Shown: positions 2,301 through 58,215, numbered from the stretch's first letter. The stretch: 64,000 bases of DNA from an uncultured Pseudomonadales bacterium (GCA_964570365.1 CAZMXT010000001.1:9440-73439), one strand, 5' to 3'. Made by a program: numbers and translations. The notes: generated from the letters alone by a model not told the origin.

Positions 2301-3683
2301 TTAAGCCGGGACCATCTTCCCATCAAGCATTTGACTCATCGTTTGCCACAGATTTGTATGAGGCTCCGCTTTATCAGGAATTTGCTGTAATCTTTTTTCT
2401 AACTCACGTCTCATCTCGTCTGCAATTATTGTTAAGCCAGCATCTCTAAGATGTTCGATTCCTTGCAACATGAAGAGGACATTAATTCTGCCGGAAGTAT
2501 GTGGGTCTTCAAAGAATGTTGCACAGCTGGTAAGAGCAGCTAGCATTGAGGACTCAGCACTCAGTATCGACATTGTTACATTTGAGTAAATGCCGCCAGG
2601 GTTATTTAAAGCATCAGAAAAGTTTTCCTCCAACCAATGACGGTGCTCATTAGGTAGTTGTGAGTATGCTACTTGTTTTATCCAGCCATTCATATCTTTG
2701 CACAATTGGTAAAAGGGCTTCTTCCACTCGCTGTTAGGGCCGCAAGCACAAATGTCATTCCACCTCCGCAAGTCTCCACAGTGACAGCTCCATGCGCTTC
2801 TTTCAACTAGATGGCCATTATGGTGCCCATCGTGAATATTAAATCCCACTCGATCCCAAATTTGTTCAAGTTGATTAATAGAGATGATCGAAGTTCCTCT
2901 ATTTGGCAGTGCTATTGTAAGTAAGTAATGAAGGAACTCAGCTCCACCCTTCCAGTGGTGGCCAAAAGTTTCAGCATCTGTAAAAGTTACTAAAGGCAAA
3001 CCATCGACCACCCGCATAAATGCTGGAAGTAGTTGGTCAACAACAAAGTTGTTTGCATTATGTTTAGGCTCAAAAGCAAATGCATGAGAGGCCTGCTTAT
3101 CGAAAGGAATAGCCTGCAGAACTCTTCCACTGGGTAAGGTCAGTTTAGTTGGCCTGTTATCAGAAGCAACTCCGGCTTCATCTTGCCGAACTTGATGCGG
3201 AGCCAACATTAAGCCTTTGTATCCAGCAGCCGCTATTTCTTCTAGAACTAACGTGGAGAGAGCTGATTCGGGCGCCCAAAAAAATAGGGGGGCTACTCCT
3301 CCTGAATCTCTTGTAAATTGTATTTTTCCTGCTCTGATTAAAAGTTGTACATCATCATGTGGGAGGTCTGGCAAGATTGCATGAATAAAGGAATCTCCAA
3401 TACCATTATTTCCTAGATTCCGATTAATTTCAGCTCCAGTATTGGGATCTATTTCACTAACGCTGTGACGAACAGTTGCATATGCATCAAATGTTGCTAG
3501 AGCAAAAACCCCCAGATCAGCTAAAACTCTATAACATTCTGCATTTACTACAGCTGTCCAGTCCTCACCCATGGGGTCTGTACTAACATGACTAAATTGG
3601 TTGTGCTTGGGATGACGAGGAGGCTGATACTGATGAAAACCAGGTATGTAAGAGCTCTCATTCTTATCGCCTTGGAAAGCCAT
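2301..3683 (-). CDS. Glycoside hydrolase family 57-like protein (alpha-glucan-active enzyme family)
   Basis: N-terminal 'GFHQYQPPRHP' matches the GH57 HQP signature region. 'FTDAETFGHHW' and surrounding regions resemble GH57 conserved blocks. 460 aa. Confidence 0.5.
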   Translation of the reverse strand: MAFQGDKNESSYIPGFHQYQPPRHPKHNQFSHVSTDPMGEDWTAVVNAECYRVLADLGVFALATFDAYATVRHSVSEIDPNTGAEINRNLGNNGIGDSFIHAILPDLPHDDVQLLIRAGKIQFTRDSGGVAPLFFWAPESALSTLVLEEIAAAGYKGLMLAPHQVRQDEAGVASDNRPTKLTLPSGRVLQAIPFDKQASHAFAFEPKHNANNFVVDQLLPAFMRVVDGLPLVTFTDAETFGHHWKGGAEFLHYLLTIALPNRGTSIISINQLEQIWDRVGFNIHDGHHNGHLVERSAWSCHCGDLRRWNDICACGPNSEWKKPFYQLCKDMNGWIKQVAYSQLPNEHRHWLEENFSDALNNPGGIYSNVTMSILSAESSMLAALTSCATFFEDPHTSGRINVLFMLQGIEHLRDAGLTIIADEMRRELEKRLQQIPDKAEPHTNLWQTMSQMLDGKMVPA

Positions 3684-7305: not shown

Positions 7306-8433
7306 CTAGGCCACTGAAAGACGAACTAGGTTGTAGAGCTCTTTGTCTCCATCTAGCTTCACGGTAGACTGAGCGACCTCCGCGTGAAGGTTCAAAGAGC
7401 CCAATTTTTTCTTTGCTCGGGTAATCGACGCTAGCAAGCTCTGAGGAGTAAGGTCTTTTTGAGGTAGAATTATCGCAGAGCCTACGCTTGCCATAACCTC
7501 GGCATTCTTGGATTGTTCATCCTGTGGAGCATGAAGCAGCGGAATCAAAATCGCGGGCTTCGCTAGGGCCATCAGCTCTTGAATCGTGTTCGCCCCTGCT
7601 CTGGAGACCACCAGTGAAGTCTTTCGATAAACCCAAGCCAATTCATTTTCAGTTAACCACTCTCGCACTACGTAATTCTTTTGCTGTTCCGGACTGAGCT
7701 GGTAATGCGCTCTTTCCAAAGTTTTTTGGTAGTCCATCACAACCGTTGGATTTCCACATTGATGAATAACAAACCAGTCTTTAGTGAGTTCAGATAAAAC
7801 TTGTGCCACCATGACGTTAATAATCTGGGAACCTTGATTTCCCCCAGTGATGTAAAGCATGGGCTTAGTTGGTGACTGTTTTAACCAGCTCGGGACTTTT
7901 CCTCTTGTCTCAATTATCTTACTGCGAAGAGGATTGCCTGTCAGAATTGTTTTATTCTGTGAAAATAAAGTCAATGAATCAGGATATGAAACAGCAATTT
8001 TTTTGGCTAACCGAGCAATAAATTGGTTGGCCACACCTGCCACCCGTGTTTGCTCATGAGTAATAATTGGGATGCCAAGCGTGAAGGCTGCGATGGCTAA
8101 TGGCACTGCTAAGTACCCCCCAAAGGATAAAAAAACATCAGGTTGCTCTTGTTTGAGAATCTGACGAGCCCGGACCAAAGAACTGCCAAACTGGATACCT
8201 TGTTTTACTAAAAGGAGGGGTCGAAAAGAGCTGGGTACTTTTCCAGCCCCAAACTCAACAAATGCAACTCCTCGCCGGCTAACTTCCTCTTTTTCCTGAC
8301 TTTGTTGCTTCAACTCAGTTTGGCTAAAGTTTCTCCCGACAAATACAAACTCATCTTTTGCAGGCAACGTTTGGGCATAGTCAATCAAGGCTAATGCTGG
8401 AGTAAGATGACCGCCAGATATAAGTACTTTCAT
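7306..8433 (-). CDS. murG: UDP-GlcNAc:lipid I GlcNAc transferase MurG
   Basis: 'MKVLISGGHLTPALAL', 'GGYLAVPLAIAAF...ITHEQ' and C-terminal GT28 motifs. dcw synteny. Confidence 0.92.
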   Translation of the reverse strand: MKVLISGGHLTPALALIDYAQTLPAKDEFVFVGRNFSQTELKQQSQEKEEVSRRGVAFVEFGAGKVPSSFRPLLLVKQGIQFGSSLVRARQILKQEQPDVFLSFGGYLAVPLAIAAFTLGIPIITHEQTRVAGVANQFIARLAKKIAVSYPDSLTLFSQNKTILTGNPLRSKIIETRGKVPSWLKQSPTKPMLYITGGNQGSQIINVMVAQVLSELTKDWFVIHQCGNPTVVMDYQKTLERAHYQLSPEQQKNYVVREWLTENELAWVYRKTSLVVSRAGANTIQELMALAKPAILIPLLHAPQDEQSKNAEVMASVGSAIILPQKDLTPQSLLASITRAKKKLGSLNLHAEVAQSTVKLDGDKELYNLVRLSVA

Positions 8434-9518
8434 ACGCGTGAATGTCGACGGCCTATCCCGATCAAGATGCCGGTAATCGATAATACCATTACCAATGCCG
8501 TTCCCCCGTAAGAAAAGAAAGGTAAAGGTACTCCTGTTAAGGGAACCAACGCTACAATTGACGCCAAATTTAAGACAATTTGCATTCCTATCCAGATCAT
8601 AATTCCCGCTGCCAGAAGGTGCTCGTACGAGCCTTCGACAGTTTTTTGGACAATTTTGTATGCTAACCTCAAGTATAAAGCAAACGAAGCAAAGACTAGC
8701 AGCGAACCTAAAAATCCCACCTCCTCGGCTACAATCGCAAAGATGGAGTCTGTACTCGCTTCAGGAATATAAGAAAATTTTTGACGCGACTTTCCAATTC
8801 CCTGGCCGAACAGTCCGCCATTTCCCAAAGCAATCGTAATTTGGCGGATGTGGAAACTTGCTCCTAATGGATCTGATTCCGGATTCAGAAAGGTGGTCAC
8901 CCGCTGGTATCGATAGGGTGATGTCACTACGAGCAGAATTAAGCAAAGAACTCCAGCTACTCCCGTAAATAAAAACGTTTTTAATGGTGCACCAGCCAAA
9001 AAATAGAGACCAAATGCAATAGCCAAAGTAATCAGAGCAGAACCCATATCAGGCTGAAGAAAAAGTAATCCGACTGGAATCAGAGTCAAAAAGAGAAAAG
9101 GACCTAATTTTTGATGCTTTTCCATCCAGCTAGCAAAAAAACAAATCATGGCAAACTTGACTAGTTCTACTGGCTGAAAACTAAATCCTAAAAAACCTAT
9201 CCACCTGCGCGCGCCATTCACCTCAAAGCCTATCCCTGGCACAAAAACCAGCAATAAGAGAAAGATACTCAGACCATATAGAAGTGGAGCACTCTTTTTC
9301 CAGACCTGACTGGGCACTATCACTCCAGCTATGAGACCCACCAGACCTACTATCAGCCAGAGGGCCTGTTGGCGCACAAAGTAAAATTGATTTCCAAATC
9401 GGGCAAAAGCTTCGGCGACTGAGGCCTCAAAAACAAAAAGCAGACCAACTACTGATAAAAGTAACGTTAATAAAAGTAGCGCTTTCTCTGGTGTTGGTAC
9501 AGGTTTTTTTAAGTTCAT
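8430..9518 (-). CDS. ftsW: SEDS-family peptidoglycan glycosyltransferase FtsW
   Basis: Polytopic membrane protein with the SEDS conserved C-terminal region 'PLPFFSYGGTALV'. Lies between murD and murG. Confidence 0.9.
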   Translation of the reverse strand: MNLKKPVPTPEKALLLLTLLLSVVGLLFVFEASVAEAFARFGNQFYFVRQQALWLIVGLVGLIAGVIVPSQVWKKSAPLLYGLSIFLLLLVFVPGIGFEVNGARRWIGFLGFSFQPVELVKFAMICFFASWMEKHQKLGPFLFLTLIPVGLLFLQPDMGSALITLAIAFGLYFLAGAPLKTFLFTGVAGVLCLILLVVTSPYRYQRVTTFLNPESDPLGASFHIRQITIALGNGGLFGQGIGKSRQKFSYIPEASTDSIFAIVAEEVGFLGSLLVFASFALYLRLAYKIVQKTVEGSYEHLLAAGIMIWIGMQIVLNLASIVALVPLTGVPLPFFSYGGTALVMVLSITGILIGIGRRHSRV

Positions 9519-12214
9519 GTCCTGGAACGATGAGTGACTGCTAATTTCTTAGCCCAATAAGCAAACTGTGCGGCTTTGTCCTCATAGTCTTTAAATTGGC
9601 CAAAGCTAGGTGAAGCTGGAGAAAGTAGTACTGTCCCAGAGGCAGGGCAGTGTTGGTAGGACATGTTTACCGCTTCCTCCATGGTGTTCGCAAACAGAAT
9701 AGTCGGCAGCTCATTCTCAGAGTAATTTTTTTTCATAATCCCAAACATTTTTTCTCCTGAAGGCTTGAAGAAAATCACTGTTGGAACTCTTTTTTCTATC
9801 ACCTTATCTACTATCTTGGTAAAATCTAAGCCCCGGTCATATCCGCCCAGCAGGATCACATCTACTCTCTCTAAAGTATCCAGAGCAATACAACTGGCTT
9901 CTGGAATGGTGGCCAACGTGTCATCAACAAAGACTCTAGTATCAAAAATCCCCACTTGCTCGAGACGATGAGGTAAAGGTTTAAAGGTGCTGAGCGCTTG
10001 TTGAATGATCGACTCATCTATTTTGAAGTGCTTTGCCACCAACGCGGCTGGCGGCAGGTTGTACTTTTGGATAATAGCGGAGGCAACTGGCTCAGCAGAA
10101 ACTAAATTGGCTGGAGAAAATGCCTGCTTCTGTGCAGTACTATTTGCCCAAATAGGCTGCAGTTCAGGTACTTCAGCGTTATAGATAAGTACATCGTCAG
10201 AGTTTTGCCAACGAGTAATATTTCCTTTCGCTTGAAGGTAGTTTTCAAATGAACCATGATAATTTAGGTGCTCGGGAAAGATATTTAGGAATACTGCCAA
10301 ATGCGGACTGAACATAACACTCTCTAGTTGGTAGCTAGACATCTCAATCACCGGAATAGTTTCTGGCTTAAGCTGCGAGTCAGACTCAAAAACTGGAGTG
10401 CCAATATTACCTGCCAGGATAGCTGGTCTACCGGCAGTCACTAGAATCTGGTGAATGAGCGCTGCAGTAGTACTCTTGCCTTTTGTGCCTGTGACACCTA
10501 CAACACTCTTTCTATACACCCTCAGGAACTCGTTGAGTTGAGAAGTAACCTCTCTATTTTGGCTCAAAAACTCCTGAAGAGCCGGCTCATGAATAGAGAT
10601 GGCGGGGGTTTTAAAAATTACGTCATAACTACTCAAGTTTTGCAGATAGGGTTCAACTTTTACGCGTACATCCTGCCCATACTTTTCAGAGACACTTGAG
10701 TCCTTATCTGAAATACCCAGCTGCTTATCAGGAAAAATTCTTCTTAAAAGTCCGTATGTGCTTTCTCCTTCCCGACCCATTCCTAGGATGAGCACTTGTT
10801 TCTGCCCAAACTGTTCGAGCAACGACTTCTGAAGGAGTGACTTTTCTTCAGTCACAGCGTTTCTAAGCACTTCAAAGAAAGCTCCGGGTAAAAAGTGAGT
10901 TGTTTGTAGAGTAGTTGTTACGTTTTTGCTGTGCGCTTCATTTCCGAGTTGAGCGGGCAGGACATGATCTTTGGCATACTGGAGTAAATGCGGAAGATGA
11001 CCAGGATTCTTCTGCAGGGTCAAGTCCAGCGCAATGAGCGTCTCTCCTCTGGTCCCGACGCATTCTAGTGACTTAATCTCCGTCATTCCAGTCAATTCAT
11101 CAAAGATTGGCTGCAGTGATTCCTTTTCTAGTAAGTTCTGTCCAAAAATATTCTCTAGCACTTGCTGTTCAACAAACGGCGATAAAATAATATAGACAAA
11201 TAGACACTTTGGGCACTCACCACACCACTTGCCAGTTTTCTGTCCCCGGTTACAACTTAGGAAGAAACTAAAATACTGAGGGTACTGACAAAATACTTTG
11301 GCAATCTGAATCTCATGCATAGGCCGTAAAAAACTAAAGTACTCTATCGCAGTAGAAACATATTTTTTGAGGTACTCTCGAAAATTACTTTCAAACTCCA
11401 AACTCTTGGAGTACTGGTGATTGATCTGCTGACCTAAGAAAGTGGTGTTTCCTTCATTGGCACTAAACTCATTAGAAACCGCAATGTACCTAATATCCAA
11501 AATATATGCTGCCAAGGTACTTGAAAAAGCGGCCATAGCAGAAAAAGGAGTATGGCCATTCAGGTACCCAGCAGTATTTAGCTCGAGTAACTGGGGATCT
11601 AAATGGCGAGAGATCTGAATATTTTCGCTGATACCAGTCATCTTTAGTAACTGCGACACCTGATCAGTAGCGTTAATCGTCAGCGTCAGACGAGGAAGCG
11701 AGAAATTTTTTAGTAACTCAATACTCACTAAAGAGTCTTTCCCTCCGCCAACTGGGATAATTACTTTTTCCAGGTGAGGTGTTTCATCAATGACAGATGA
11801 CTTTTCTGCACCCTCAACCTTAAATTTTACAAACCCTTCACTCCAGCCATCAATCTGATTGACAAAGAAAAACTCACTGAGACCTTTTTTAAGGAGCTCT
11901 TCCCAAAATTTTAATTGATCTGCTGATAAGTAGCCTGCTTGAATAACAAATTCAGAAGAGCAAGCAGCTTTCCAGTAAGAGAAACCCTCGACCATTCCCA
12001 GCTGGAAAATCCAGTTCTGTAGAACTTCCTCGTTTAGTTGTTCTAAATGCTCAGCAGTGACATGGTGATATATATATTTAGAGGTAAATGCAAGTTCGGG
12101 TTCAAGTGTATAAAAAAAAAGTAGCTCTAATCCCTCAGCTGTTAGTTGATAGGAAAATCGCTGATAAATAAAGCGCGGATGATTCTGCCGCAAGCTTTGT
12201 AAGCGATGAGACAT
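9515..12214 (-). CDS. murD: Fusion protein: N-terminal ~460-aa PP-loop ATP-pyrophosphatase-like domain with a Cys4 zinc-ribbon, joined to a C-terminal complete UDP-MurNAc-L-Ala:glutamate ligase MurD (899 aa)
   Basis: MurD part (approx. 9515-10800): 'KQVLILGMGREG' Rossmann N-domain and 'VVGVTGTKGKSTT' P-loop. N-terminal domain: 'VIIPVGGGKDSLVS' (approx. 11735-11770) resembles the SGGxDS PP-loop; 'CNRGQKTGKWCGECPKC' (approx. 11204-11254) is a C-x10-C-x2-C-x2-C motif. Confidence 0.85.
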   Translation of the reverse strand: MSHRLQSLRQNHPRFIYQRFSYQLTAEGLELLFFYTLEPELAFTSKYIYHHVTAEHLEQLNEEVLQNWIFQLGMVEGFSYWKAACSSEFVIQAGYLSADQLKFWEELLKKGLSEFFFVNQIDGWSEGFVKFKVEGAEKSSVIDETPHLEKVIIPVGGGKDSLVSIELLKNFSLPRLTLTINATDQVSQLLKMTGISENIQISRHLDPQLLELNTAGYLNGHTPFSAMAAFSSTLAAYILDIRYIAVSNEFSANEGNTTFLGQQINHQYSKSLEFESNFREYLKKYVSTAIEYFSFLRPMHEIQIAKVFCQYPQYFSFFLSCNRGQKTGKWCGECPKCLFVYIILSPFVEQQVLENIFGQNLLEKESLQPIFDELTGMTEIKSLECVGTRGETLIALDLTLQKNPGHLPHLLQYAKDHVLPAQLGNEAHSKNVTTTLQTTHFLPGAFFEVLRNAVTEEKSLLQKSLLEQFGQKQVLILGMGREGESTYGLLRRIFPDKQLGISDKDSSVSEKYGQDVRVKVEPYLQNLSSYDVIFKTPAISIHEPALQEFLSQNREVTSQLNEFLRVYRKSVVGVTGTKGKSTTAALIHQILVTAGRPAILAGNIGTPVFESDSQLKPETIPVIEMSSYQLESVMFSPHLAVFLNIFPEHLNYHGSFENYLQAKGNITRWQNSDDVLIYNAEVPELQPIWANSTAQKQAFSPANLVSAEPVASAIIQKYNLPPAALVAKHFKIDESIIQQALSTFKPLPHRLEQVGIFDTRVFVDDTLATIPEASCIALDTLERVDVILLGGYDRGLDFTKIVDKVIEKRVPTVIFFKPSGEKMFGIMKKNYSENELPTILFANTMEEAVNMSYQHCPASGTVLLSPASPSFGQFKDYEDKAAQFAYWAKKLAVTHRSRT

Positions 12215-12232: not shown

Positions 12233-13273
12233 TTATAGCATCGCTAACCATACACCAAACAAGGTTAACATAATTTGAACGAGCCAGGCGCGTTGAACAA
12301 TTTTTGGCTCTTCCCAGCCATGATGCTGGAGCCAAAGATGAAATGGAGAAGCTGGAAAAAGTTTTTTCTTGCGCAGCCGTTTTGAGAGTAGCTGGCTTAG
12401 GGAAGTAAAAATCTCTAACACAAAGATAAATCCTATTACAACTAATGCAATCACCTTCCCCAATAAGAGTCCCACCACCGCCAGGGTGGCGCCAAAAGCC
12501 AGCGCCCCGACATCCCCCATGAATAATCGAGCCGGAAAAATATTGAAGTACAGGAAAGAAATCAACGATCCCAGCCACAGAGCCAGAAACATCGAAATAG
12601 GTACATCCAAAATTTGGGCTGAAAGGTACCAGAGTCCAAAGAACGAAATCATTAAGATCCCCCCAGCCAAACCATCCAAACCATCAGTCACATTTACAGC
12701 ATTTGTGAAAGCTAGAATTACAAAAGCGGCAAACGGAATATACAACCAACCGAGTTCAAACGTCCCAATAAAGGGAATGTTTACAAATGAAATTCCTAGC
12801 TCGTGGTAAAGCAACCACCCTATTATCAGAGAGAGAGCAACTTGTAAGGCCAATTTGTGCTTCAGGCGCAAACCAAAGAACTGCTCTTTCTTAAACTGAA
12901 AGAATTTCTTGACGTCATCATATAAACCCAACAAGCCAAATGACAAGAAAGTAAAGAAAAGAATGTTGATTTCTTTCTCCACATTATAGACCCCATTGAC
13001 TGGGATACCGGTATGTTTCAACAGCGGGAAAATCACTGCAAAAAGAGTCGTGACCACAAGAATAATTAACAAGCCTCCACCAACTGGCACGCCCGCTTTC
13101 TTGTTATGAAACTTGTCAAAAATAGGAGTGTGCTCCCCAAAAGCGTCTACTGTCCGCTGGTTGGCTCGTCGGAACCTCATACTATATAAGAGGTTGATAA
13201 ATGGAACGATCAAAATACTCGTCAGAATAAAAGAAAAAATTAGTAAGCCTAAAATAAAGACCATTGAGTTCAT
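12233..13273 (-). CDS. mraY: Phospho-MurNAc-pentapeptide transferase MraY
   Basis: 'NAVNVTDGLDGLAGG' MraY signature in a polytopic membrane protein. dcw synteny. Confidence 0.95.
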   Translation of the reverse strand: MNSMVFILGLLIFSFILTSILIVPFINLLYSMRFRRANQRTVDAFGEHTPIFDKFHNKKAGVPVGGGLLIILVVTTLFAVIFPLLKHTGIPVNGVYNVEKEINILFFTFLSFGLLGLYDDVKKFFQFKKEQFFGLRLKHKLALQVALSLIIGWLLYHELGISFVNIPFIGTFELGWLYIPFAAFVILAFTNAVNVTDGLDGLAGGILMISFFGLWYLSAQILDVPISMFLALWLGSLISFLYFNIFPARLFMGDVGALAFGATLAVVGLLLGKVIALVVIGFIFVLEIFTSLSQLLSKRLRKKKLFPASPFHLWLQHHGWEEPKIVQRAWLVQIMLTLFGVWLAML

Positions 13274-14611: not shown

Positions 14612-17059
14612 TTATTCCAGAAAAAAAACTTCTTCTTCTAATTCTACTCCATATAGTTCTAGAACTCTCTGCTTGACAATTTTGGCGAGTTCTTTTACTT
14701 CTTGGCTGGTTCCCTGACCAAGATTGATGAAAAAAGCCGCATGTTTTGCACTCACTTGAATACCACCGACTCTAGTCCCTTTTAAGCCTGCTTGGTCAAT
14801 TAAAAAAGCCGTGGGAAACTCAGCTCTTTGTGCAAATTGGGGGAAGAGCCCTGCCAAATTGGGAGTCATCGGTGTGTTGCGAAAGTAACAGCCCGAGCTG
14901 GGCTCGCCTAGAGGTTGAGTTTGTGCGCGATAAATCGTCGCTTCCTTCACCTTAGTCATCGATTCTTCTTGGTTGCCTTCAGCTAACTTGAACTCAGCCT
15001 GCAGAATTATCTCCTTGGTGTGATGAAACCTAGAAAAATCATACTTAAAGTCACACTCTTGTGTAGAGAGCCACTTAACTTTTGAGTCATCAGTAATAAC
15101 TTCAACGCGGTGAATATGCTCTCCGATCAAGTCTCTTAAGTAGTGGGCATTGTTGTAAACTGCACCCCCAACTTTCCCCGGTACCCCTAGGAAGTACTCC
15201 AGGCCTTGTAGGCCTTCATCAATTGTCTTGCGAACAAAAAGAGCAGTCTTGTACCCAGCGCCAACTCTGACTATCTTCTTACCATCTCCACTATCAGCAG
15301 ATTCTAAAGAGTACTCCTCATTACTTGCGCGAATGACTACCCCTACCAAACCTTTATCACTAACAACTACATTGCTGGCTCCCGCCAAAATAGTCATGGG
15401 AAACTGCTGCTCCTGACAATGTTTCACTACCGCAATAATATCTTGGCGAGACTTCAAATCGAGAAATACTTCAGCTGGTCCCCCAATCTTAAAGTATGTT
15501 AAAGGGGCTAAAACATAGTTAAATTCTGGACTGAGATGAGAAAAATGATGATGAATGGATTCTTGGAGTGGAGTACGGGGAGTCATGGATTTATTGTGCA
15601 TCGCTCCCTCATCGGTAATGAGGTCATGAATTTTATAAATATCACCAGCTCCAATAGTTAGTAACACATTACCCGGTCTCAGATTTTTCTGAGAATAACA
15701 AGCTAGGTCATTCAAATTTTCTAAGTTCCGAGCCGGAATCTCAGGGAATCTCTCCTGAATAGCAGTACACAACATATCGCTCGTAATACTCATGTCGACT
15801 GCTTCTCTGGCAGACGGAAAGATATCCATCATCCAAACCTCACTGGCGTCTTTGAATGCTGTCACAAAATCAGCAAAAAGAGATTTGGTACGTGAATACG
15901 TGTGGGATTGGAAGGCCACCACTAATCGCTGAGTAGGAAACCACTCTCGGTAGGCAGCAATAACTTTTTGAACTTCATGAGGGTGATGAGCGTAGTCATC
16001 ATAGTACTTCACTTGATTTTTTTCACCGATAAATTGGCACCTTCGTAAGGTTGATCTGAAAGTTGCCAGTGCGGTTGCAGCCTTTTGAGCAGGAACTCCA
16101 ATGCAGCTGCACGCTGCAATTGCTGCCACTGCATTTTCCAAGTTATAGTACCCAGGAATCTGAAGTTTTAACGAAATAGCACCTCTGACTAAAGGTGAAA
16201 AAAAGTTGCAGCTATTACTACCCAGTTCTGCTTGGATAGAGGCTGGATCAATCCAGAAGTCAGAACCTTTTTTTGAACCAAAAGAGTATGTAGTAATTCC
16301 TACATTGTGGTAAAAAACCCCAAGTTCTTCATCTGCTTTATTAAAGATTAAAAAACCACCTGACTGAACCTGATTAAAGAAAGTTTCAAACGTCTTGACT
16401 GTATGGTCTAAATCTTTATATACATCGGGGTGATCAAACTTTAAGTTAGTACACACCGTCAGGAATGGGTGGAAAAAAGAAAAGCGTGGTGTACTCTCCA
16501 CACCTCGACTGGGAGCTGTCGGATCAATCACATACTCATCAGCTTCTGCAACAAAGTATTGACTCTCCTCAGACCATTTTCCAGTTTTTTTCATGCCTGG
16601 AATATCACCTACACCAACTGAAAATGAAGGGTTGCACCCTGTCTTCTCTAAGATCCAGCTAATCATTGCCGATGTGGTCGATTTTCCTCCTACCCCACAG
16701 ACTGCAATACCTTTTTTTTGGTTAAAGAGCGCTGCAATGGCTTCTGCCTGAGAGTAAACTGGTAAACGTCTTTTTTGGGCTTGAATTACCTGAGGATTTT
16801 GTTGAGCTTGATGAGCTGCTGTGTAAATAAGGCAGTCAACCTCTGCGGGAATCTCAGTCTCAAAACTGAGATCTATTTTAATATTTTCACTTTTTAGTAG
16901 CGGTTGCGTTACAAACTCTTCTGCCAAATCAGAACCAGTAACTTTTTTGCCAGCATCAAGTAAGCATTGGGCCAAAGAAGTCATTGCGACACCTTTAACG
17001 CCAACTAAATAAAAGAAATCATACTGGAGTAGATCGGTGAGTTGCGAGTGAGCGTTCAT
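14612..17059 (-). CDS. murC-murB: Bifunctional fusion: UDP-MurNAc:L-alanine ligase MurC (N-terminal ~485 aa) joined to UDP-N-acetylenolpyruvoylglucosamine reductase MurB (C-terminal ~320 aa)
   Basis: MurC motifs: 'FFYLVGVKGVAMTSLAQCLLDAGKKVTGSD' and 'GVGGKSTTSAMI'. MurB FAD-binding region: 'YFKIGGPAEVF...ILAGASNVVVSD'. A single uninterrupted 815-aa ORF. Confidence 0.9.
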   Translation of the reverse strand: MNAHSQLTDLLQYDFFYLVGVKGVAMTSLAQCLLDAGKKVTGSDLAEEFVTQPLLKSENIKIDLSFETEIPAEVDCLIYTAAHQAQQNPQVIQAQKRRLPVYSQAEAIAALFNQKKGIAVCGVGGKSTTSAMISWILEKTGCNPSFSVGVGDIPGMKKTGKWSEESQYFVAEADEYVIDPTAPSRGVESTPRFSFFHPFLTVCTNLKFDHPDVYKDLDHTVKTFETFFNQVQSGGFLIFNKADEELGVFYHNVGITTYSFGSKKGSDFWIDPASIQAELGSNSCNFFSPLVRGAISLKLQIPGYYNLENAVAAIAACSCIGVPAQKAATALATFRSTLRRCQFIGEKNQVKYYDDYAHHPHEVQKVIAAYREWFPTQRLVVAFQSHTYSRTKSLFADFVTAFKDASEVWMMDIFPSAREAVDMSITSDMLCTAIQERFPEIPARNLENLNDLACYSQKNLRPGNVLLTIGAGDIYKIHDLITDEGAMHNKSMTPRTPLQESIHHHFSHLSPEFNYVLAPLTYFKIGGPAEVFLDLKSRQDIIAVVKHCQEQQFPMTILAGASNVVVSDKGLVGVVIRASNEEYSLESADSGDGKKIVRVGAGYKTALFVRKTIDEGLQGLEYFLGVPGKVGGAVYNNAHYLRDLIGEHIHRVEVITDDSKVKWLSTQECDFKYDFSRFHHTKEIILQAEFKLAEGNQEESMTKVKEATIYRAQTQPLGEPSSGCYFRNTPMTPNLAGLFPQFAQRAEFPTAFLIDQAGLKGTRVGGIQVSAKHAAFFINLGQGTSQEVKELAKIVKQRVLELYGVELEEEVFFLE

Positions 17060-17071
17060 AGAAAACTTATC

Positions 17072-18055
17072 TTAAATAGAGTCCTGCAGAATTTGAGCCA
17101 GGACAGCTTGAAGCTTTTCCGGATCATGGCGTAAGAGTGAGCGATGTGCTGTATCGTTACTGCTTTTTTCGAAAATCTGTGGGCTTAATAAAGGGTGTCG
17201 GATAACCCGAACATCATTCAAGTCATCCACTACCGGATACTCACGGTCTGCAGCATAAAGTGCTAACATCTCATCTTGAATGGCCTCATTATTTAGCACT
17301 ACTTTATCCACTGGGCGACCGATCAGCTCTTCAATTCCCGTCAAATGATCTGCAGCTGACATCTCATGCGTTTGAGTGAAGCGCGTCATTAAGTTAATAA
17401 AGTAGACGATGGTTGCTTTTGTTTGAGCAAAAGCTGACTTAGTGCCATCAGGCAACAACGCTGCGAAGAGACTGGCGTAGTAATCACCGGGCCCGATCAC
17501 AATCACATTTGCTTCCTTGATTGCTCGTGCAGCCTGATCGTTGATTTTCGCCTTATCGACCAATTTAACCTGTTTAATTTTCTTTACCTCAGTAAGTTTC
17601 CCGTCCAGTACGTGCTCACCAATCGCCATGTCCCCATCAGCATACTCTATTTGGAGATGAACGTTGTCTTTTGTAGCTGGTATGACTTCCCCTTGAATTC
17701 GAAATATTTTTTCCGCAATCAGTAAGGCCTCAGTCGTATCCCCAGTCATATCTTGGAGTGCCGTTAACAATAAGTTTCCAAGATTATGGCCTTTTAGGCC
17801 TTCACCTTTTTCAAACCTGTAGAGAAGTATCTTCCTAATCCACTCTTCTCCTTCCAGCTCTGCCAAAGCTGCTAGTGCTTGTCTCAGATCACCAACGGGT
17901 TGAAAACCGAACTCGTCTCTTAACTTTCCTGTGGAGCCACCGGAATCAGAAACTGCAATGATACTCGCGATCTCAACACCTTGATGTTTCAGGCTCGAAA
18001 TAACTGGAAAAGTACCAGTACCACCGCCGATAACTACAACTTTACGTTTCACCAT
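17072..18055 (-). CDS. YvcK/CofD-like (UPF0052, gluconeogenesis-factor family) protein. The ATG at 18055 is the likely start (the track ORF runs to 18121)
   Basis: 'KVVVIGGGTGTFPVISSLK...IIAVSDSGGSTGKLRDEFG' is characteristic of the YvcK/CofD family. Confidence 0.8.
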   Translation of the reverse strand: MVKRKVVVIGGGTGTFPVISSLKHQGVEIASIIAVSDSGGSTGKLRDEFGFQPVGDLRQALAALAELEGEEWIRKILLYRFEKGEGLKGHNLGNLLLTALQDMTGDTTEALLIAEKIFRIQGEVIPATKDNVHLQIEYADGDMAIGEHVLDGKLTEVKKIKQVKLVDKAKINDQAARAIKEANVIVIGPGDYYASLFAALLPDGTKSAFAQTKATIVYFINLMTRFTQTHEMSAADHLTGIEELIGRPVDKVVLNNEAIQDEMLALYAADREYPVVDDLNDVRVIRHPLLSPQIFEKSSNDTAHRSLLRHDPEKLQAVLAQILQDSI

Positions 18056-18056
18056 A

Positions 18057-19310
18057 CTACTTCCTTTGTTTTTGCTGAGCACGCCCCCGAATAGTAATAG
18101 CTTCTTGGGCCACTTTCGCATCGCTCCAGGGATATTCTTTTTTTCCGTAACACATACTTTGCTCGTGACCTTTACCTAGGAGAGCCACGATATCTCCAGG
18201 TTCTGCAAGTTGTTGAACTGCAAAGTTAATCGCTTCCCCTCTATCACAAATAGAAAGTACTTTTGCGTGGAATGGGCGTAGATCTTGTTTCATTTGTCGA
18301 ATAATTGACCAAACATCTTCAGTTCTGGGGTCCTCAGCTGTGAAGATAACAATATCTGCTAACTCAGCTCCTATCCTACCCATCTTGGGCCGCTTTTGCC
18401 AATCCCGTAAACCCGCGCAACCAAATACAGCGATTAATCTATTCAGCTTCTCTGCGCTGATTCTTTGTCTTAGTGCAGTCAAAACTGCTCGGACGGCATT
18501 TGGCGTGTGAGCAAAATCCACAACTACCTCGATGTTCTTTTTCTTCACAACGGTCTGCATTCTTCCTACCACACTGGGAAAAGCAGCAACTGCCTTCACA
18601 AAGCTGGCCGGGTCAATTCCAAGCTTTTGGCTCATCGCATAGACCAACCGCGCATTCATTTGATTATAGGCTTGAGGAAAACGTCTTATAATAGCTTCCC
18701 GGACGGTATTCGGCAAACTATCTGCTTGTGAGTAGGTAGTAATCTGAGTTGAGGAGGACTGGAGAACTTTTCTTAGTTTATTATATGAGAGCTCATCATC
18801 AGCATTGAGCACTGCAATCTGTGAATCTTTAATCAGGATTGCTTTGGCAGCTAAATAGGCATCATAGGTAACATGATAATCCAGGTGCTCAAAAGAAATA
18901 TTTGTTACCCCCACCAAAAATGGATGAATTCCCCATAAGCGATGCTGATAGATTCCATGGGAGGTCGCCTCTAAAACTAGGTCTTGATATCCTCCAGACA
19001 CCATCCGAGCTAAAAAAGCCTGCAATTGCCGAGGGTCAGGAGTAGTAACATGGAAACCTGTGCCTATTGATTGATCACCAATGTAGGCAGCAACAGTCGT
19101 TAAGAGGGCGACTTTGCGACCAGCTTTTTTTAGCACATGATAAAGTAGTGTGCTTGAGGTGGTTTTTCCATCCGTTCCAGTAATACAAATAATACGGAGT
19201 TTTCGAGCAGGAAAATGATACTTTATTTCAGCTGGTAGTCCGCGGAGTAGTCCGGTTTTTACCAAGTGAAAGGGTCGTTTGAAACGGTAAATCAATTCTT
19301 TAATCATCAA
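18057..19310 (-). CDS. murE: Mur ligase, most likely UDP-MurNAc-L-Ala-D-Glu:diamino-acid ligase MurE (compact, 417 aa)
   Basis: 'ICITGTDGKTTSSTLLYHVL' P-loop, Mur ligase middle and C domains, and 'EDPR' near the C-terminus (DNPR-like MurE motif). Lies between ftsI and yvcK, as expected for murE. Confidence 0.75.
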   Translation of the reverse strand: MMIKELIYRFKRPFHLVKTGLLRGLPAEIKYHFPARKLRIICITGTDGKTTSSTLLYHVLKKAGRKVALLTTVAAYIGDQSIGTGFHVTTPDPRQLQAFLARMVSGGYQDLVLEATSHGIYQHRLWGIHPFLVGVTNISFEHLDYHVTYDAYLAAKAILIKDSQIAVLNADDELSYNKLRKVLQSSSTQITTYSQADSLPNTVREAIIRRFPQAYNQMNARLVYAMSQKLGIDPASFVKAVAAFPSVVGRMQTVVKKKNIEVVVDFAHTPNAVRAVLTALRQRISAEKLNRLIAVFGCAGLRDWQKRPKMGRIGAELADIVIFTAEDPRTEDVWSIIRQMKQDLRPFHAKVLSICDRGEAINFAVQQLAEPGDIVALLGKGHEQSMCYGKKEYPWSDAKVAQEAITIRGRAQQKQRK

Positions 19311-22980: not shown

Positions 22981-23817
22981 TTATTTTTTCAATACTAAGT
23001 AGAGTGGTAACAAATCAACTTCGGCTGTGAAACTCTTGCCGTCGCCCTTTGCAGGAAATTCTTGCCAACTTCGGCCATTCCAAGCTGAAATCACGGCAGT
23101 TGTTGCTGCTTCGCTTGCTCTGATGATAATGCTGGCCTTACCCTTTAATGGGCTACTGGTGGTCAATGAGTAGACTTCAGAAATAACAGTGCCCGTTGGA
23201 GATTTTGGATACCCGGGAGAGTTAAAGATAACCAAGTGTCGCTGTGTAGCTAAATCTTTACTCTCAATCTGGAACTTAGCATCTTTTGAACTGTACTCAG
23301 TCTCACGGGTAGTATTTTCAAAATACTTCCACTCTGATTTGAGCGCGTAGTTTTCAGGACCAGTGTAACGAGTTAACAAACTGCCCCCCTTGACATCTCT
23401 ATGATATGTACAGGCTCCACCCGCACTACAGCTTCCAAATAAAATATCTTTGGTCACTGGCAAAGCAGAAAGTGCCAACTCACCAAAAGCTCCTTGCAAC
23501 AGTTCTCCGGCTTGATACTCTAGCTCATACTCTACCTGATCAGCCGGCTTTTTTACTTCATTAAAGCTGATCAGTACATTTCGACCACTACTTTGGGGAA
23601 TGATCTCAATAAAGGGTCGTTCACTGACAGGAATAATGTTCAATGAGTCAGCTTTGCGTTTCTTTTTTGGTTCAGTTTGAGCCTGCTCAGCTGGTTTGGA
23701 ACGAACTCTAGTAAAAGCAAAAATTCCTCCGCCTACTAGAAGCAGCGCTACTATAATTCCAATGATAGTCATGTTTCGTTTATTCATATTGATCCCTGAA
23801 GATAAGTTTCTGATCAA
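22981..23817 (-). CDS. Hypothetical membrane-anchored protein (N-terminal TM helix, extracytoplasmic domain, no recognised family)
   Basis: 278-aa ORF with hydrophobic 'IIGIIVALLLVGGGIFAF' and a long clean frame. Confidence 0.5.
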   Translation of the reverse strand: MIRNLSSGINMNKRNMTIIGIIVALLLVGGGIFAFTRVRSKPAEQAQTEPKKKRKADSLNIIPVSERPFIEIIPQSSGRNVLISFNEVKKPADQVEYELEYQAGELLQGAFGELALSALPVTKDILFGSCSAGGACTYHRDVKGGSLLTRYTGPENYALKSEWKYFENTTRETEYSSKDAKFQIESKDLATQRHLVIFNSPGYPKSPTGTVISEVYSLTTSSPLKGKASIIIRASEAATTAVISAWNGRSWQEFPAKGDGKSFTAEVDLLPLYLVLKK

Positions 23818-41913: not shown

Positions 41914-43080
41914 CTACGCGTGTGACTCAATTGCTCGCTGATATACCTTCACCGTCTCTTCAGCAACTCGATCCCAGCTAAACTGGTGCAATCGAATAAT
42001 CATTTTTTGAAGTCGTTGTCGTTGCTGCTCTGGCGTTTCTCCTAGGACCTTCTCAATTCCTTTACGAATGCTTTCCACTGACTGCGGATCAATCAACTCG
42101 GCCGCATTCCCTGCCACCTCTGGCATCGAAGAAATGTCTGACGTCAAAACTGGCGTTCCATGATGAAAGGCTTCCAAAATTGGCAAACCAAAACCTTCGT
42201 AGATGCTTGGGTAGGCAAAAAGCTCTGCTTCGCCGTATAACACGGCTAGCTCAACGTCACTTACTTTACCTAAGAATCTCAAGTTCTTATGATTCACTGT
42301 TTTGGCCAGTCCATCACTCTCGTCCCAGCCACTTTCACCCGCAATAACTAGCTGAAAATCCTTTGCCAACGGTATCCAAGCCTCAATCAATCTCTTTAAG
42401 TTTTTACGTGGCTCTCTAGTTCCCACAAACAAAATGTAGGGCTGATCTAAGTGCAGCTTCTGCCTAAGCTGCTCATACTCTTCTTCAGTGACGTTCTTAC
42501 TGCTCTGAATTGTCTCGATGGGTAAGCTTTCATAAATAACGTGCACTCGATGGCTGGGAATCTCCAGGAGCTTGACGATATCTTGCTTGGTCGCCTGACT
42601 GACCGCTATGATCTGGGCTTCTCGCTCCTTCAGCACCTTCCACGCTTGTTGGTGCATCTTCAGAATTTTGGGATGTGCAGTCTCAGGGAACTTTAAGATT
42701 GCCAGGTCATGAATCGTGGAGACGAGTGGTAGCTCCCGATCTGGTGGCTGGAGCCAGTCCCAGGAGTGAAAAACGTCTAGTTTAGGAAACAAACGCTTCA
42801 CTGGATTGAGATGCAACTTGTTCCACAGGATTTCTTGCAATCGAGGTGGGTAGGGCTGAATCACCGAACTTACATTGGCCCGAGTACGCTGGGCAGAAAT
42901 TCGCTTGACAAAGTTCTCTAGCTCCGCCTGCTGTCGCAGGCTTGATCCATACAGAGCCAGTGATAACTCAGCACGCTGAGTTAAGGCAGTCACCAGGTTG
43001 GCCGTGTACCGCGAAACTCCTCGCCCATAAATAATAGAAGTGATATCAATTCCGAGTTGCATAAATGTCTGGCCGAGCAT
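41914..43080 (-). CDS. GT4-family glycosyltransferase. The start is ambiguous: the track ORF runs to 43149, with alternative ATGs at 43080 and 43062
   Basis: 'YEGFGLPILEAFHHGTPVLTS' motif. The first 23 codons of the ORF overlap the upstream gene without homology. Confidence 0.8.
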   Translation of the reverse strand: MLGQTFMQLGIDITSIIYGRGVSRYTANLVTALTQRAELSLALYGSSLRQQAELENFVKRISAQRTRANVSSVIQPYPPRLQEILWNKLHLNPVKRLFPKLDVFHSWDWLQPPDRELPLVSTIHDLAILKFPETAHPKILKMHQQAWKVLKEREAQIIAVSQATKQDIVKLLEIPSHRVHVIYESLPIETIQSSKNVTEEEYEQLRQKLHLDQPYILFVGTREPRKNLKRLIEAWIPLAKDFQLVIAGESGWDESDGLAKTVNHKNLRFLGKVSDVELAVLYGEAELFAYPSIYEGFGLPILEAFHHGTPVLTSDISSMPEVAGNAAELIDPQSVESIRKGIEKVLGETPEQQRQRLQKMIIRLHQFSWDRVAEETVKVYQRAIESHA

Positions 43081-44593
43081 ACACACGTACCACTCCAATT
43101 GGCGTGGACGGCGTAATTCTGTCCACCTCACGATACCCGTATCGCTCAATTTCGGAAAGTAAGAGATTCTGGGAGTCAGTTAAATCCCGCAGATACTCAA
43201 ACGCTAGGACGTATTGATAATTGGAGATCTCTTTGAGATTCGTGAGCTGTTCAGCTGAGTTAATACTTATTACTCCACTGGCCAGAGACGGAAAATTATC
43301 CGTGTTGTACCAAACCCAACTGGCAAATGGCGCGGTAAACGCAAATACCGCTACTGATTCTTCGGCATTGTATTGTTGGGTGATTTCAGCATGTAGACTC
43401 CGCCAATCTTCGCGGTGGTACTTTGGCTGTATGTAGTAGGAGAAAGTGGAAAAAATATTAATAAATAGGATCAATACCACAAAGCTGCCGGCAATGTACC
43501 GAGAGAGCTGGTGCTTCTTGCCCAACTCAAATCCAGAAAGGATGAGCGCGCTTAAGATTAAGTAAAAGGCTGGCAAACTAAACAAAACTCTTTTGGGTTG
43601 GAGCACTGGTACAAAAAAAGAAGCTAGCCAGGCAGTTAAGATTGGTACTACCAACCAACAGAATCCCATTCCGTACTGACTCCAGAGTTCGCTTGATCTG
43701 GTTTTTTTGACACTAAAGTAAATGAGAGTTCCTAGTAGGGCTATGAAAAGACCAGATAGAAGAAAATATCCAACACTGGGTTCCAAATCCAGCACTCCAA
43801 AAATAAACTTTCCGGCGGTGAGCGGCAAAGATCTGAGTTGGGAAAAACTCACTACATTTTCCCAGCCACTCAGCTGCACCCTCAGCAACTGCCCGGCTCG
43901 AAGTTGAGCCAAAAATAGTGGTATCCAGGGCAAGAAAAAAATGCAACTTGCCAGGCTTGAAAGAAGAATTGGTCGCCGGAATTGCTGACGAAATGCTACC
44001 GCATAGACCAACTGACCTGCCAGTACAAATGGATAAAGGTAGGAAGAGTACAGACCCATCGTCGTATCAAAAATAAAGACTAACCACCAAAACTGTGGTC
44101 TAGAGAAAATTGAGTTCCCCCTGCTCTTGCTACTCAGTCTTTCCAGATAGACCAAATTAAACCAGCTCAAGGTTGCCCACATCAACGGTAATGCATAGGG
44201 TCGCAGTTCTTGGGAGTAGAAAATATGAAAAGATGAAGTTGCTAAGAAAAGACCAGTCAGCAACCCTGCTTTCCGACTAATTTTCCAGGAAGCAATGTAG
44301 TAGGTCGCCGCAATACTAATTAACGCTGGAATGAGCGCAGCCCCAGTGCGCAGCCAAGCTTCACTTCGGGAGACACGTAGCAAAAGGTGGACTAAGAGAT
44401 GAATCTGCGGGGGCTGAAAGTCAGGCACAATTTGCAACTGCTCTGCCCACGGTCGAGAGCTTTCCAAAGCTTGGGCTGCTTCATCCAACCACAACGAGCC
44501 ACTGAGTAAAGGCAACCGTAGAACCACTGCCAACAGCAGAATCAAGAGAATTGGCCAAAAGCGCAGAATCAGTGCTTTCATGAAGATACTCAT
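43046..44593 (-). CDS. GT-C fold membrane glycosyltransferase, ArnT/PMT-like
   Basis: Polytopic 515-aa protein with first-loop 'LWLDEAAQ' (DE motif typical of the GT-C ArnT/PMT family). Confidence 0.55.
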   Translation of the reverse strand: MSIFMKALILRFWPILLILLLAVVLRLPLLSGSLWLDEAAQALESSRPWAEQLQIVPDFQPPQIHLLVHLLLRVSRSEAWLRTGAALIPALISIAATYYIASWKISRKAGLLTGLFLATSSFHIFYSQELRPYALPLMWATLSWFNLVYLERLSSKSRGNSIFSRPQFWWLVFIFDTTMGLYSSYLYPFVLAGQLVYAVAFRQQFRRPILLSSLASCIFFLPWIPLFLAQLRAGQLLRVQLSGWENVVSFSQLRSLPLTAGKFIFGVLDLEPSVGYFLLSGLFIALLGTLIYFSVKKTRSSELWSQYGMGFCWLVVPILTAWLASFFVPVLQPKRVLFSLPAFYLILSALILSGFELGKKHQLSRYIAGSFVVLILFINIFSTFSYYIQPKYHREDWRSLHAEITQQYNAEESVAVFAFTAPFASWVWYNTDNFPSLASGVISINSAEQLTNLKEISNYQYVLAFEYLRDLTDSQNLLLSEIERYGYREVDRITPSTPIGVVRVYARPDIYATRN

Positions 44594-54285: not shown

Positions 54286-54546
54286 ATGACCCAACAAAAC
54301 CTAGATGCTAATCAAACTAAATTGGTGGAACTCTTTAGCAATGTTTTCCCAAGCCTAACCAAAGATAGTTTTAATCTAGATCAAGATCGAACTACGTTTG
54401 AGAACTGGGACTCTCTGAGTCATATGCAGCTAGTCTCAGAAATTGAACAAAGCTTTAATGTGTCATTTGAGATGGAGGAGATTGTCGACATTAGCAAGCC
54501 TGCTGACTTCCTTGCCTTAATTACTAAGAAGAAAGCTCAAGCATGA
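54286..54546 (+). CDS. Acyl/aminoacyl carrier protein (phosphopantetheine-binding). ATG at 54286 is preceded by AAAGGA
   Basis: 'FENWDSLSHMQLVSEIEQSF' matches the carrier-protein DSL serine attachment motif. 86 aa, acidic. Confidence 0.75.
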   Translation: MTQQNLDANQTKLVELFSNVFPSLTKDSFNLDQDRTTFENWDSLSHMQLVSEIEQSFNVSFEMEEIVDISKPADFLALITKKKAQA

Positions 54547-56051: not shown

Positions 56052-56056
56052 GATCT

Positions 56057-57109: not shown

Positions 57110-57113
57110 GGAT

Positions 57114-58211: not shown

Positions 58212-58215
58212 GTAT

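Follow-up and report, generated by a model that had tools for sequence, protein, structure and literature searches.

Among the genes on a stretch of 64,000 nucleotides of DNA deposited under the name of an uncultured Pseudomonadales bacterium (GCA_964570365.1, CAZMXT010000001.1:9440-73439; this whole stretch is called the window in what follows), one encodes a MurL-type and a MurD-type enzyme of peptidoglycan precursor synthesis in a single coding sequence. It is part of a long division and cell wall (dcw) cluster on the minus strand with the order mraZ, rsmH, ftsI, murE, yvcK-like, murC-murB, murA, mraY, murL-murD2, ftsW, murG, ftsQ, ftsA, ftsZ, and it is the sole MurD homologue in the window. 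The open reading frame (ORF) list and the translation give it as a single uninterrupted ORF of 899 codons followed by TGA, which is what an earlier reading of the window (the original prediction) had claimed for the dcw cluster, with the strand left unmentioned. Its ATG at position 12214 has a Shine-Dalgarno (SD)-like AAGGAAG about 10 nucleotides (nt) upstream, and its TGA, at 9515-9517, shares bases with the ftsW ATG in an ATGA overlap. Very probably the product is a bifunctional MurL-MurD2 enzyme with both steps of an alternative D-glutamate (D-Glu) route on one polypeptide, to judge from family models, specificity residues and predicted structure. The coordinates of its parts are collected in Table 1.

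Table 1. The murL-murD2 gene of the window and the domains, motifs and residues of its product (aa, amino acid residues; positions counted from the first letter of the window).
Feature	Coordinates	Strand	Basis or remark
murL-murD2 fusion gene	9515..12214	-	murD slot of the dcw cluster, between mraY (12233-13273) and ftsW (8430-9518)
MurL N-terminal subdomain, aa 1-147	11774..12214	-	PF26299 MurL_N; confident model; three-stranded sheet plus helices
QueC-like PP-loop ATP-pyrophosphatase core, aa 148-377	11084..11773	-	
PP-loop motif VIIPVGGGKDSLVS, aa 151-164	11723..11764	-	SGGxDS type, first Ser replaced by Gly
Cys4 ribbon CNRGQKTGKWCGECPKC, aa 321-337, C321-x9-C331-x2-C334-x2-C337	11204..11254	-	
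MurL C-terminal helical region, aa 378-452, holding ECVGT	10859..11083	-	NF041275 match to position 445 of 447
ECVGT motif, aa 384-388	11051..11065	-	C385, V386, G387 invariant; E384, T388 at least 90% conserved
Fusion linker, aa 453-472, AVTEEKSLLQKSLLEQFGQK	10799..10858	-	alignment with the unfused L004 MurL and MurD
MurD2-type Mur ligase half, aa 473-899	9518..10798	-	TIGR01087, Pfam Mur_ligase_M and Mur_ligase_C, PDB MurDs
E648 (E. coli Asp182, X. oryzae Glu197)	10271..10273	-	L-Glu specificity determinant; alignment
L767 (E. coli Lys319)	9914..9916	-	alignment
R794 (E. coli Lys348, X. oryzae Arg358)	9833..9835	-	L-Glu specificity determinant; alignment
P869-S870-F871 (P869: Ala414, Pro433; F871: Leu416, Phe435)	9602..9610	-	alignment

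The N-terminal half has no Mur-ligase similarity in Pfam and NCBIfam scans, as the original prediction had noted, and the search of profile hidden Markov models (HMMs) of PP-loop and MurL families which that prediction had proposed places it, over its full length, in the MurL family (E 1e-83). Specifically, NF041275, a Xanthomonadales-specific MurL model, is matched with E-values of 1.4e-82 to 2e-83 (278-280 bits) over profile positions 45-445 of 447, and precomputed Pfam matches on the exact protein are to PF26299 MurL_N and PF26298 MurL_epimerase_C (E <= 1e-5). A Pfam scan of this half returned only sub-threshold DUF6395 and QueC, being nearly empty because the release scanned was one without MurL models.

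Both the PP-loop-like motif and the QueC-like Cys4 ribbon picked out in the original prediction are present exactly, conserved, and aligned with those of QueC. The PP-loop, P154-V-G-G-G-K-D-S161, comes after strand E148-154, and among 66 stand-alone MurL-family sequences its G158, K159 and D160 are invariant and its G156, G157 and S161 at least 90% conserved. C321, C331, C334 and C337 of the ribbon are invariant in those 66 and also in 38 fused sequences, and over both sets GGGKDS, the four ribbon cysteines and C385 are all invariant or nearly so. As they are conserved across the 66 MurL-family sequences, the two motifs are not chance features. The ribbon cysteines of QueC bind Zn, and the ribbon here is probably a structural Zn site as in that enzyme. 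C385 is, speculatively, a candidate catalytic acid/base for alpha-proton exchange, and the PP-loop core is the proposed site at which the alpha-carboxylate of the glutamate is adenylated (ATP to AMP and PPi). The N-terminal subdomain, whose SYWK motif (S79, Y80, W81, K82) is invariant in the 66 sequences, would serve to bind the UDP-MurNAc-dipeptide substrate (MurNAc, N-acetylmuramic acid).

Structure prediction, also proposed in the original prediction, gave a confident QueC-like PP-loop fold for this half: the AlphaFold model has a predicted local distance difference test score (pLDDT) of 95 and a predicted template modelling score (pTM) of 0.93, ends in helices (H389-454), and matches QueC and other PP-loop ATP pyrophosphatases, with QueC and NAD synthetase the closest solved folds. 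The fold is consistent with AMP formation. Sequence similarity to QueC is marginal. The Pfam QueC model scores E 0.2 and 11.5 bits, under its cut-off of 22, and HHalign with E. coli QueC gives a weak probability of 7% (E 0.005), yet the two are in register end to end, with FSGGQDS of E. coli QueC paired to PVGGGKDS and the QueC C-x8-C-x2-C-x2-C paired to the ribbon. A PDB sequence search with the N-terminal half yielded only chance matches to Mediator Med31, so by sequence there is no MurL structure in the PDB, and MurL has been described as a protein that 'lacks known conserved domains' (PMC8788868, PMC5808125). When set beside QueC (7-cyano-7-deazaguanine synthase) and the QueC-like Cap9 and QatC, MurL adds an N-terminal domain of about 147 aa and a helical tail of about 75 aa; it also differs from QueC in its substrate and in an outcome that is epimerisation and hydrolysis, not an amide or nitrile. 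MurL resembles a QueC-type adenylating enzyme in its working, yet is not a QueC.

Could the PP-loop domain nevertheless work as QueC does, which turns an adenylated carboxylate into an amide? The original prediction had offered as its second option an amidation, on the nucleotide precursor, that makes iso-glutamine of the glutamate. Its alpha-carboxylate would be the group amidated, and free ammonia would be used in the manner of QueC. Both of the nearest solved folds, QueC and NAD synthetase, are indeed adenylate-forming amidating enzymes, and carboxylate adenylation would be an identical first step. Known iso-glutamine formation, by MurT/GatD, works on lipid II and belongs to a different family, and there is neither a glutaminase nor a GatD-like domain in the protein or the adjoining genes; on the window the NCBIfam MurT model found MurE only, weakly, and no GatD-like gene was found among the scanned window ORFs. 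L-Glu-type ligase residues, considered below, make sense only if the stereocentre is corrected later. Besides, the N-terminal half is a full-length member of a family whose characterised members are epimerases releasing AMP (PMC8788868, PMC5808125), those of Xanthomonas, Micromonospora and Salinispora being ATP-dependent epimerases in vitro without ammonia (PMC8788868). Amidation is on this evidence very improbable, and that option of the original prediction falls. Its first option, L-to-D epimerisation of the MurD2/MurL type on one polypeptide, is supported by the full-length MurL domain and by the MurD2 residues of the other half, and with it holds the core inference, namely that the glutamate just added is the target of an adenylating PP-loop enzyme joined to MurD.

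The C-terminal half is a complete MurD, as had been predicted for the last ~430 residues, since TIGR01087 murD is matched end to end above its cut-off (aa 473-887, 276 bits against 212, profile positions 1-438 of 441). Solved MurD structures match it down to E 1e-42 in a PDB sequence search, the ATP P-loop GTKGKST is at aa 576-582, and the conserved E624, H649 and K663 are in place. Which isomer of glutamate does it add? X. oryzae MurD2 ligates L-Glu, and near the Glu site it differs from E. coli MurD at Glu197/Asp182, Arg358/Lys348, Pro433/Ala414 and Phe435/Leu416; the E197D/R358K double mutant has D-Glu specificity, mutation of Pro433 and Phe435 leaves specificity unchanged, and K319T makes E. 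coli MurD accept L-Glu (all PMC8788868). With positions assigned via the E. coli MurD numbering of that study (alignment numbering being that of the literature plus 1), the window protein was compared with 188 MurL-linked MurDs, fused to or adjacent to MurL, and with five canonical D-Glu MurDs as controls (E. coli and the solved 3lk7, 4buc, 7sir and 8dp2). Position 182 is Glu in 169 of the MurL-linked set (Asp in 18, Gly in 1), and among the canonical five it is Asp, with Thr in the streptococcal one. Position 319 is Ile or Leu in all 188, never Lys, and Lys in 5 of 5 canonical proteins, and position 348 is Arg in 187 of the 188, whereas the canonical five have Lys (the E. coli and T. maritima enzymes and two more of the solved ones) or, in Streptococcus, Arg. 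At position 414 the MurL-linked set has Ala (92), Ser (64), Pro (21) and Thr (10), and the canonical five have Ala; at 416 the corresponding residues are Tyr (129) and Phe (58), and in the canonical five Leu, Phe or Trp. The window protein has all four MurD2-type residues (E648, R794, P869, F871), with Leu in place of the canonical Lys319. Since the four are present and that lysine gone, the ligase half probably uses L-Glu, and addition of L-Glu is the most likely reading of its activity.

The route in question was first described for X. oryzae MurL (XOO_1319) and MurD2 (XOO_1320), and Micromonospora and Salinispora orthologues have been tested as well (Feng et al. 2017, as relayed in PMC8788868 and PMC5808125). 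The characterised homologues use L-Glu, release AMP and carry out a one-way L-to-D conversion (PMC8788868, PMC5808125). The window gene shares with the X. oryzae pair both protein families, the gene order murL to murD, the MurD2-type residues at E. coli positions 182 (Glu), 348 (Arg), 414 (Pro) and 416 (Phe), and, in its N-terminal half, an end-to-end match to the MurL family model; the chemistry, too, may be expected to be the same. It differs in being one polypeptide where X. oryzae has two, and in its location in the murD slot of the dcw cluster of what is probably a genome of Patescibacteria, a group absent from the published distribution.

If the 899-aa protein performs the chemistry of its homologues, as seems a reasonable expectation, the ligase half (aa 473-899) would first activate UDP-MurNAc-L-Ala as an acyl phosphate (ATP to ADP and Pi) and join L-Glu to it. 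The MurL half (aa 1-452) would then adenylate the alpha-carboxylate of the terminal L-Glu on its PP-loop (ATP to AMP and PPi), whereupon the activated alpha-carbon would lose a proton and regain one from the opposite face, with Cys385 or another conserved residue presumably the catalytic base, and after this inversion the MurL half would hydrolyse the adenylate. Fusion would bring stoichiometric expression or a hand-over of the intermediate.

Several points weigh against so tidy a picture. The 278-280 bits of the N-terminal half fall well below the NF041275 equivalog cut-off of 700, which makes it a member of the MurL family and not a close orthologue of the Xanthomonadales enzyme, of which it is only a remote relative; and the likeness to the characterised X. 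oryzae pair is judged from family models and the E. coli numbering. The specificity-residue argument goes back to one mutagenesis study of one MurD2, with only five MurDs as controls; Arg occupies position 348 in the streptococcal D-Glu control too, and positions 414 and 416 vary inside the MurL-linked set. In the full-length model both halves are well folded (pLDDT 90.8), and because its pTM is 0.63 no defined interface between them is predicted, so that channelling of the intermediate is a hypothesis which the model does not support. With respect to D-Glu supply, phmmer with E. coli MurI found no MurI homologue in the 64-kb window, and there were no Pfam or NCBIfam matches to a racemase or D-amino-acid aminotransferase among the scanned window ORFs, both being statements about the window only; active MurI is reported for at least one member of the Patescibacteria (Penalver 2024, as cited in PMC11974145).

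These last considerations, together with the passing of the generic murD equivalog model by the C-terminal half, are what one would cite in favour of an ordinary D-Glu MurD fed by a MurI encoded elsewhere, with MurL redundant, devoted to another substrate, or engaged in salvage or proof-reading of mis-incorporated L-Glu. Such an arrangement is unlikely. It does not accord with the four MurD2-type residues and the Leu at position 319, nor with the near-universality of the replacement of K319 by Ile or Leu and of K348 by Arg in the 188 MurL-linked MurDs, on account of which the MurL and MurD activities can be taken to have co-evolved, and the repeated independent fusion of exactly these two genes points to an obligate functional couple.

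Is the fusion real? The window was compared over the gene with three assemblies from other samples and pipelines (ENA ERZ505514, JGI 3300020596, Logan SRR6448209), which differ from it by 1-2 nt in the gene, the variants being A8T (H3L) and the silent G534T, and by 7-10 nt over 8-12 kb of flanks. The 899-codon frame is open with zero internal stops in 4 of 4 assemblies. A stop or frameshift separating the halves, named in the original prediction as what would undo it, is found in none of the four at the assembly level, and since assemblies that differ by single-nucleotide polymorphisms (SNPs) all keep the frame open, one concealed at the junction is very unlikely. One might still suspect that the fusion is an artefact of assembly or sequencing, or that it is a read-through which has very recently inactivated the genes in an organism that makes or needs two proteins, on the grounds that the nearest relatives have two separate genes and that, with about 15 of about 40 split loci having both genes in one frame with a single stop between, a single base error could mimic a fusion. 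Such an explanation is extremely improbable in view of the concordance of the four assemblies over the junction, with SNPs elsewhere, and the retention of equivalent fusions in dozens of other lineages. Moreover, the linker is 20 in-frame residues without a stop, modelled as a helix (aa 460-469 in the full-length model), and inspection, by eye only, revealed no convincing internal SD and start codon ahead of the MurD Rossmann motif.

The closest relatives of the N-terminal half are stand-alone MurLs of 434-499 aa with at most 60% identity. Two loci, the P0121 contig (JGI 3300050046) and L004 (GCA_034680565.1), show what the unfused arrangement looks like: mraY, a murL of 456-461 aa, a spacer of 20-50 nt, a murD of 442-446 aa, and ftsW, all within the same synteny (yvcK, murC, murB, murA, mraY, murL, murD, ftsW, murG, ftsQ, ftsA, ftsZ). 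Their products share 57-60% and 53% identity with the two halves (57% and 53% for L004) and have the same ELRPF signature. They differ in that murL has its own stop and murD its own start, and in that murC and murB are likewise separate, both pairs being fused in the window. The linker of the window protein stands where, in the nearest relatives, murL ends in its stop and is followed by the spacer and the initial ~16 codons of murD; the fusion came about by loss of the murL stop codon with read-through of the short spacer into murD.

When 159 MurL domains are placed on a neighbour-joining tree, the window protein falls in a clade of 23 leaves of which all the others are stand-alone MurLs, and because the nearest relatives keep two genes its fusion is recent and independent. 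Fitch parsimony on this distance tree requires, as a rough count, no fewer than 21 switches from fused to split or back; the MurL-MurD fusion arose repeatedly. At the same-frame, single-stop loci mentioned above (L009, L013, L014, L015, L017, L018, L028, L039, L041, L055, L057, L061, L071, L072 and L074) a one-base change would fuse the genes. Programmed read-through or another form of recoding was considered for these junctions and rejected as unsupported, since with short spacers chance would leave about a third of the pairs in a common frame.

The origin of the window is probably in the Patescibacteria and Microgenomates-like, since among named organisms it is that group (Woesebacteria, Pacebacteria and 'Patescibacteria group') which supplies the closest relatives of both the MurL domain and MurC-MurB. 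An Rfam scan of the window gave no matches, with no rRNA or tRNA genes found there. Some metagenome-assembled genomes (MAGs) have taxonomic labels that look doubtful: L018 (DASPLQ010000012.1, Vitreimonas sp.) and the Pseudomonadales-labelled L008, L073 and L079 have MurL/MurD with 36-38% identity to the window protein (34% for L079), and the MurC of the 'Vitreimonas' MAG (P0399) is 59% identical to the window MurC, as Woesebacteria and Pacebacteria proteins are like it also.

How widespread is the arrangement? Public proteins include more than 120 clusters at 90% identity with the same MurL-MurD architecture, and a pattern scan confirmed at least 596 relatives in species-representative genomes of several phyla, gut commensals included. 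Among the best 80 of these at least 596 loci, 37 are unambiguous single ORFs of 812-1046 aa, 2 more are probable fusions, and about 40 are adjacent genes, MurL being next to murD in the nearest relatives and in some 40 further genomes. The fusion is found in Bacteroidales, Marinilabiliales, Lentimicrobiaceae, Clostridia (Oscillospiraceae, Lachnospirales, Eubacteriales), Erysipelotrichaceae, Falkowbacteria, Peribacteria and Pacebacteria, and the complete TM6 genome CP011212.1 (L031) carries one. Those of Bacteroidales, Clostridia, TM6, Daviesbacteria, Falkowbacteria, Peribacteria and others (e.g. P0002-P0120, L031) have the same domain order and motifs as the window protein, with 36-42% identity over about 98% of the length; they differ in stemming from separate fusion events, with linkers of other length and sequence. 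Recurrence in so many lineages argues that the fusion is functional. The family at large is bigger still: HMMER on 1.84 billion representatives of 50% identity clusters gave 1,202 MurL-family clusters at E <= 1e-30 and 2,570 at E <= 1e-3.

Further architectures (P0271, P0337, P0274, P0320, P0367) have MurL after a MurD-like ligase, that is in reverse order, after a three-domain Mur ligase, or after MurB, and one 1247-aa protein is MurL-Mur ligase-peptidase M20. Joining of consecutive cytoplasmic peptidoglycan enzymes from neighbouring dcw genes has parallels in the MurC-Ddl and MurE-MurF fusions (NF011171, NF008896) and in the MurC-MurB of the window itself; here, in contrast, the partner is a PP-loop epimerase that is not a Mur ligase, and what is joined is two steps of an alternative route. 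Databases label the fused proteins just 'UDP-MurNAc-L-Ala--D-glutamate ligase' or "MurD", and JGI already names many stand-alone Patescibacteria homologues as epimerase. The protein being bifunctional and its ligase half probably specific for L-Glu, the label leaves out one of its activities and probably names the wrong substrate for the other. The claim in the original prediction of an undescribed fused architecture survives in part: no published description of a MurL-MurD2 fusion was found in the literature searched, and yet the fusion is common in public genomes and Pfam has MurL models.

Some other genes of the window deserve mention. The murC-murB fusion (14612-17059, minus strand) is an 815-aa ORF matching TIGR01082 murC at aa 16-479 and TIGR00179 murB at aa 517-814; the two genes are separate in the nearest relatives, with a 116-aa ORF between them in L004, and about 20 other MurC-MurB fusions, with 38-52% identity, are in public data. 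Between it and murE is a YvcK/CofD-related gene (17072-18121, minus strand; UDP-GlcNAc-binding protein family, TIGR01826, 265 bits), also present in L004. The product of murE (18057-19310, minus strand; 417 aa) matches the MurE model from profile position 74 on, and with the TTG start as called it therefore appears to be without the N-terminal Mur-ligase domain. Over the 64 kb, none of murF, ddl, alr and murI came to light, nor did a gene for a D-amino-acid aminotransferase, and since the cluster runs murE, yvcK, murC/B, murA, mraY, murL/D, ftsW with no murF among them, murF is encoded elsewhere. On the plus strand, at 54543-59502, four genes encode an AMP-binding (acyl-adenylate) enzyme, an Fe-type alcohol dehydrogenase, a LuxE-like acyl-protein synthetase and a LuxC-like acyl-CoA reductase; they are placed with a large glycosyltransferase and nucleoside diphosphate (NDP)-sugar region (~26.5-53.5 kb) and may be a fatty aldehyde/alcohol module that modifies a surface glycan. 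Four uncharacterised ORFs have no NCBIfam match at E <= 1e-5, namely 2301-3683 (460 aa), 22981-23817 (278 aa) and 43046-44593 (515 aa) on the minus strand and 60636-61790 (384 aa) on the plus strand, and the 278-aa and 515-aa ORFs, the two of the four that were scanned, have no Pfam match at E <= 1e-3.

What, then, does the gene tell us? The MurL-MurD2 fusion represents a known pathway of two enzymes in a variant with one polypeptide, and it is one of many public fusions that go under an incomplete name; no new kind of system is revealed. Its interest is in how it alters the view of the pathway. Reviews have the MurL/MurD2 route confined to a few genera, and hence a narrow-spectrum drug target (PMC8788868, PMC5808125), and public genomes show the MurL route to be much more widespread than those reviews state. 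Metabolic reconstructions of genomes without murI would wrongly call a gap in D-Glu supply. With the confident model the MurL core enters the QueC-like PP-loop family, and the Cys4 ribbon and an invariant fifth cysteine provide residues to mutate. That the same two genes have been fused many times independently, and in both orders, is a clear example of selection for the coupling of consecutive steps.

A bolder proposition, to which we would give a real if somewhat less than even chance, is that MurL/MurD2 and not a racemase is the sole source of D-Glu here and the usual one for a large part of the Patescibacteria as well as for many Bacteroidales and Clostridia of the gut, with the fusion selected for a direct hand-over of the L-Glu intermediate from ligase to epimerase. 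If this is true, the view of a pathway confined to few genera would be wrong, and with it the idea of a narrow-spectrum antibiotic target, and the fused enzymes would be a convenient single-protein system for the mechanism by which an ATP-driven, one-way peptide epimerase operates on a QueC-like PP-loop scaffold.

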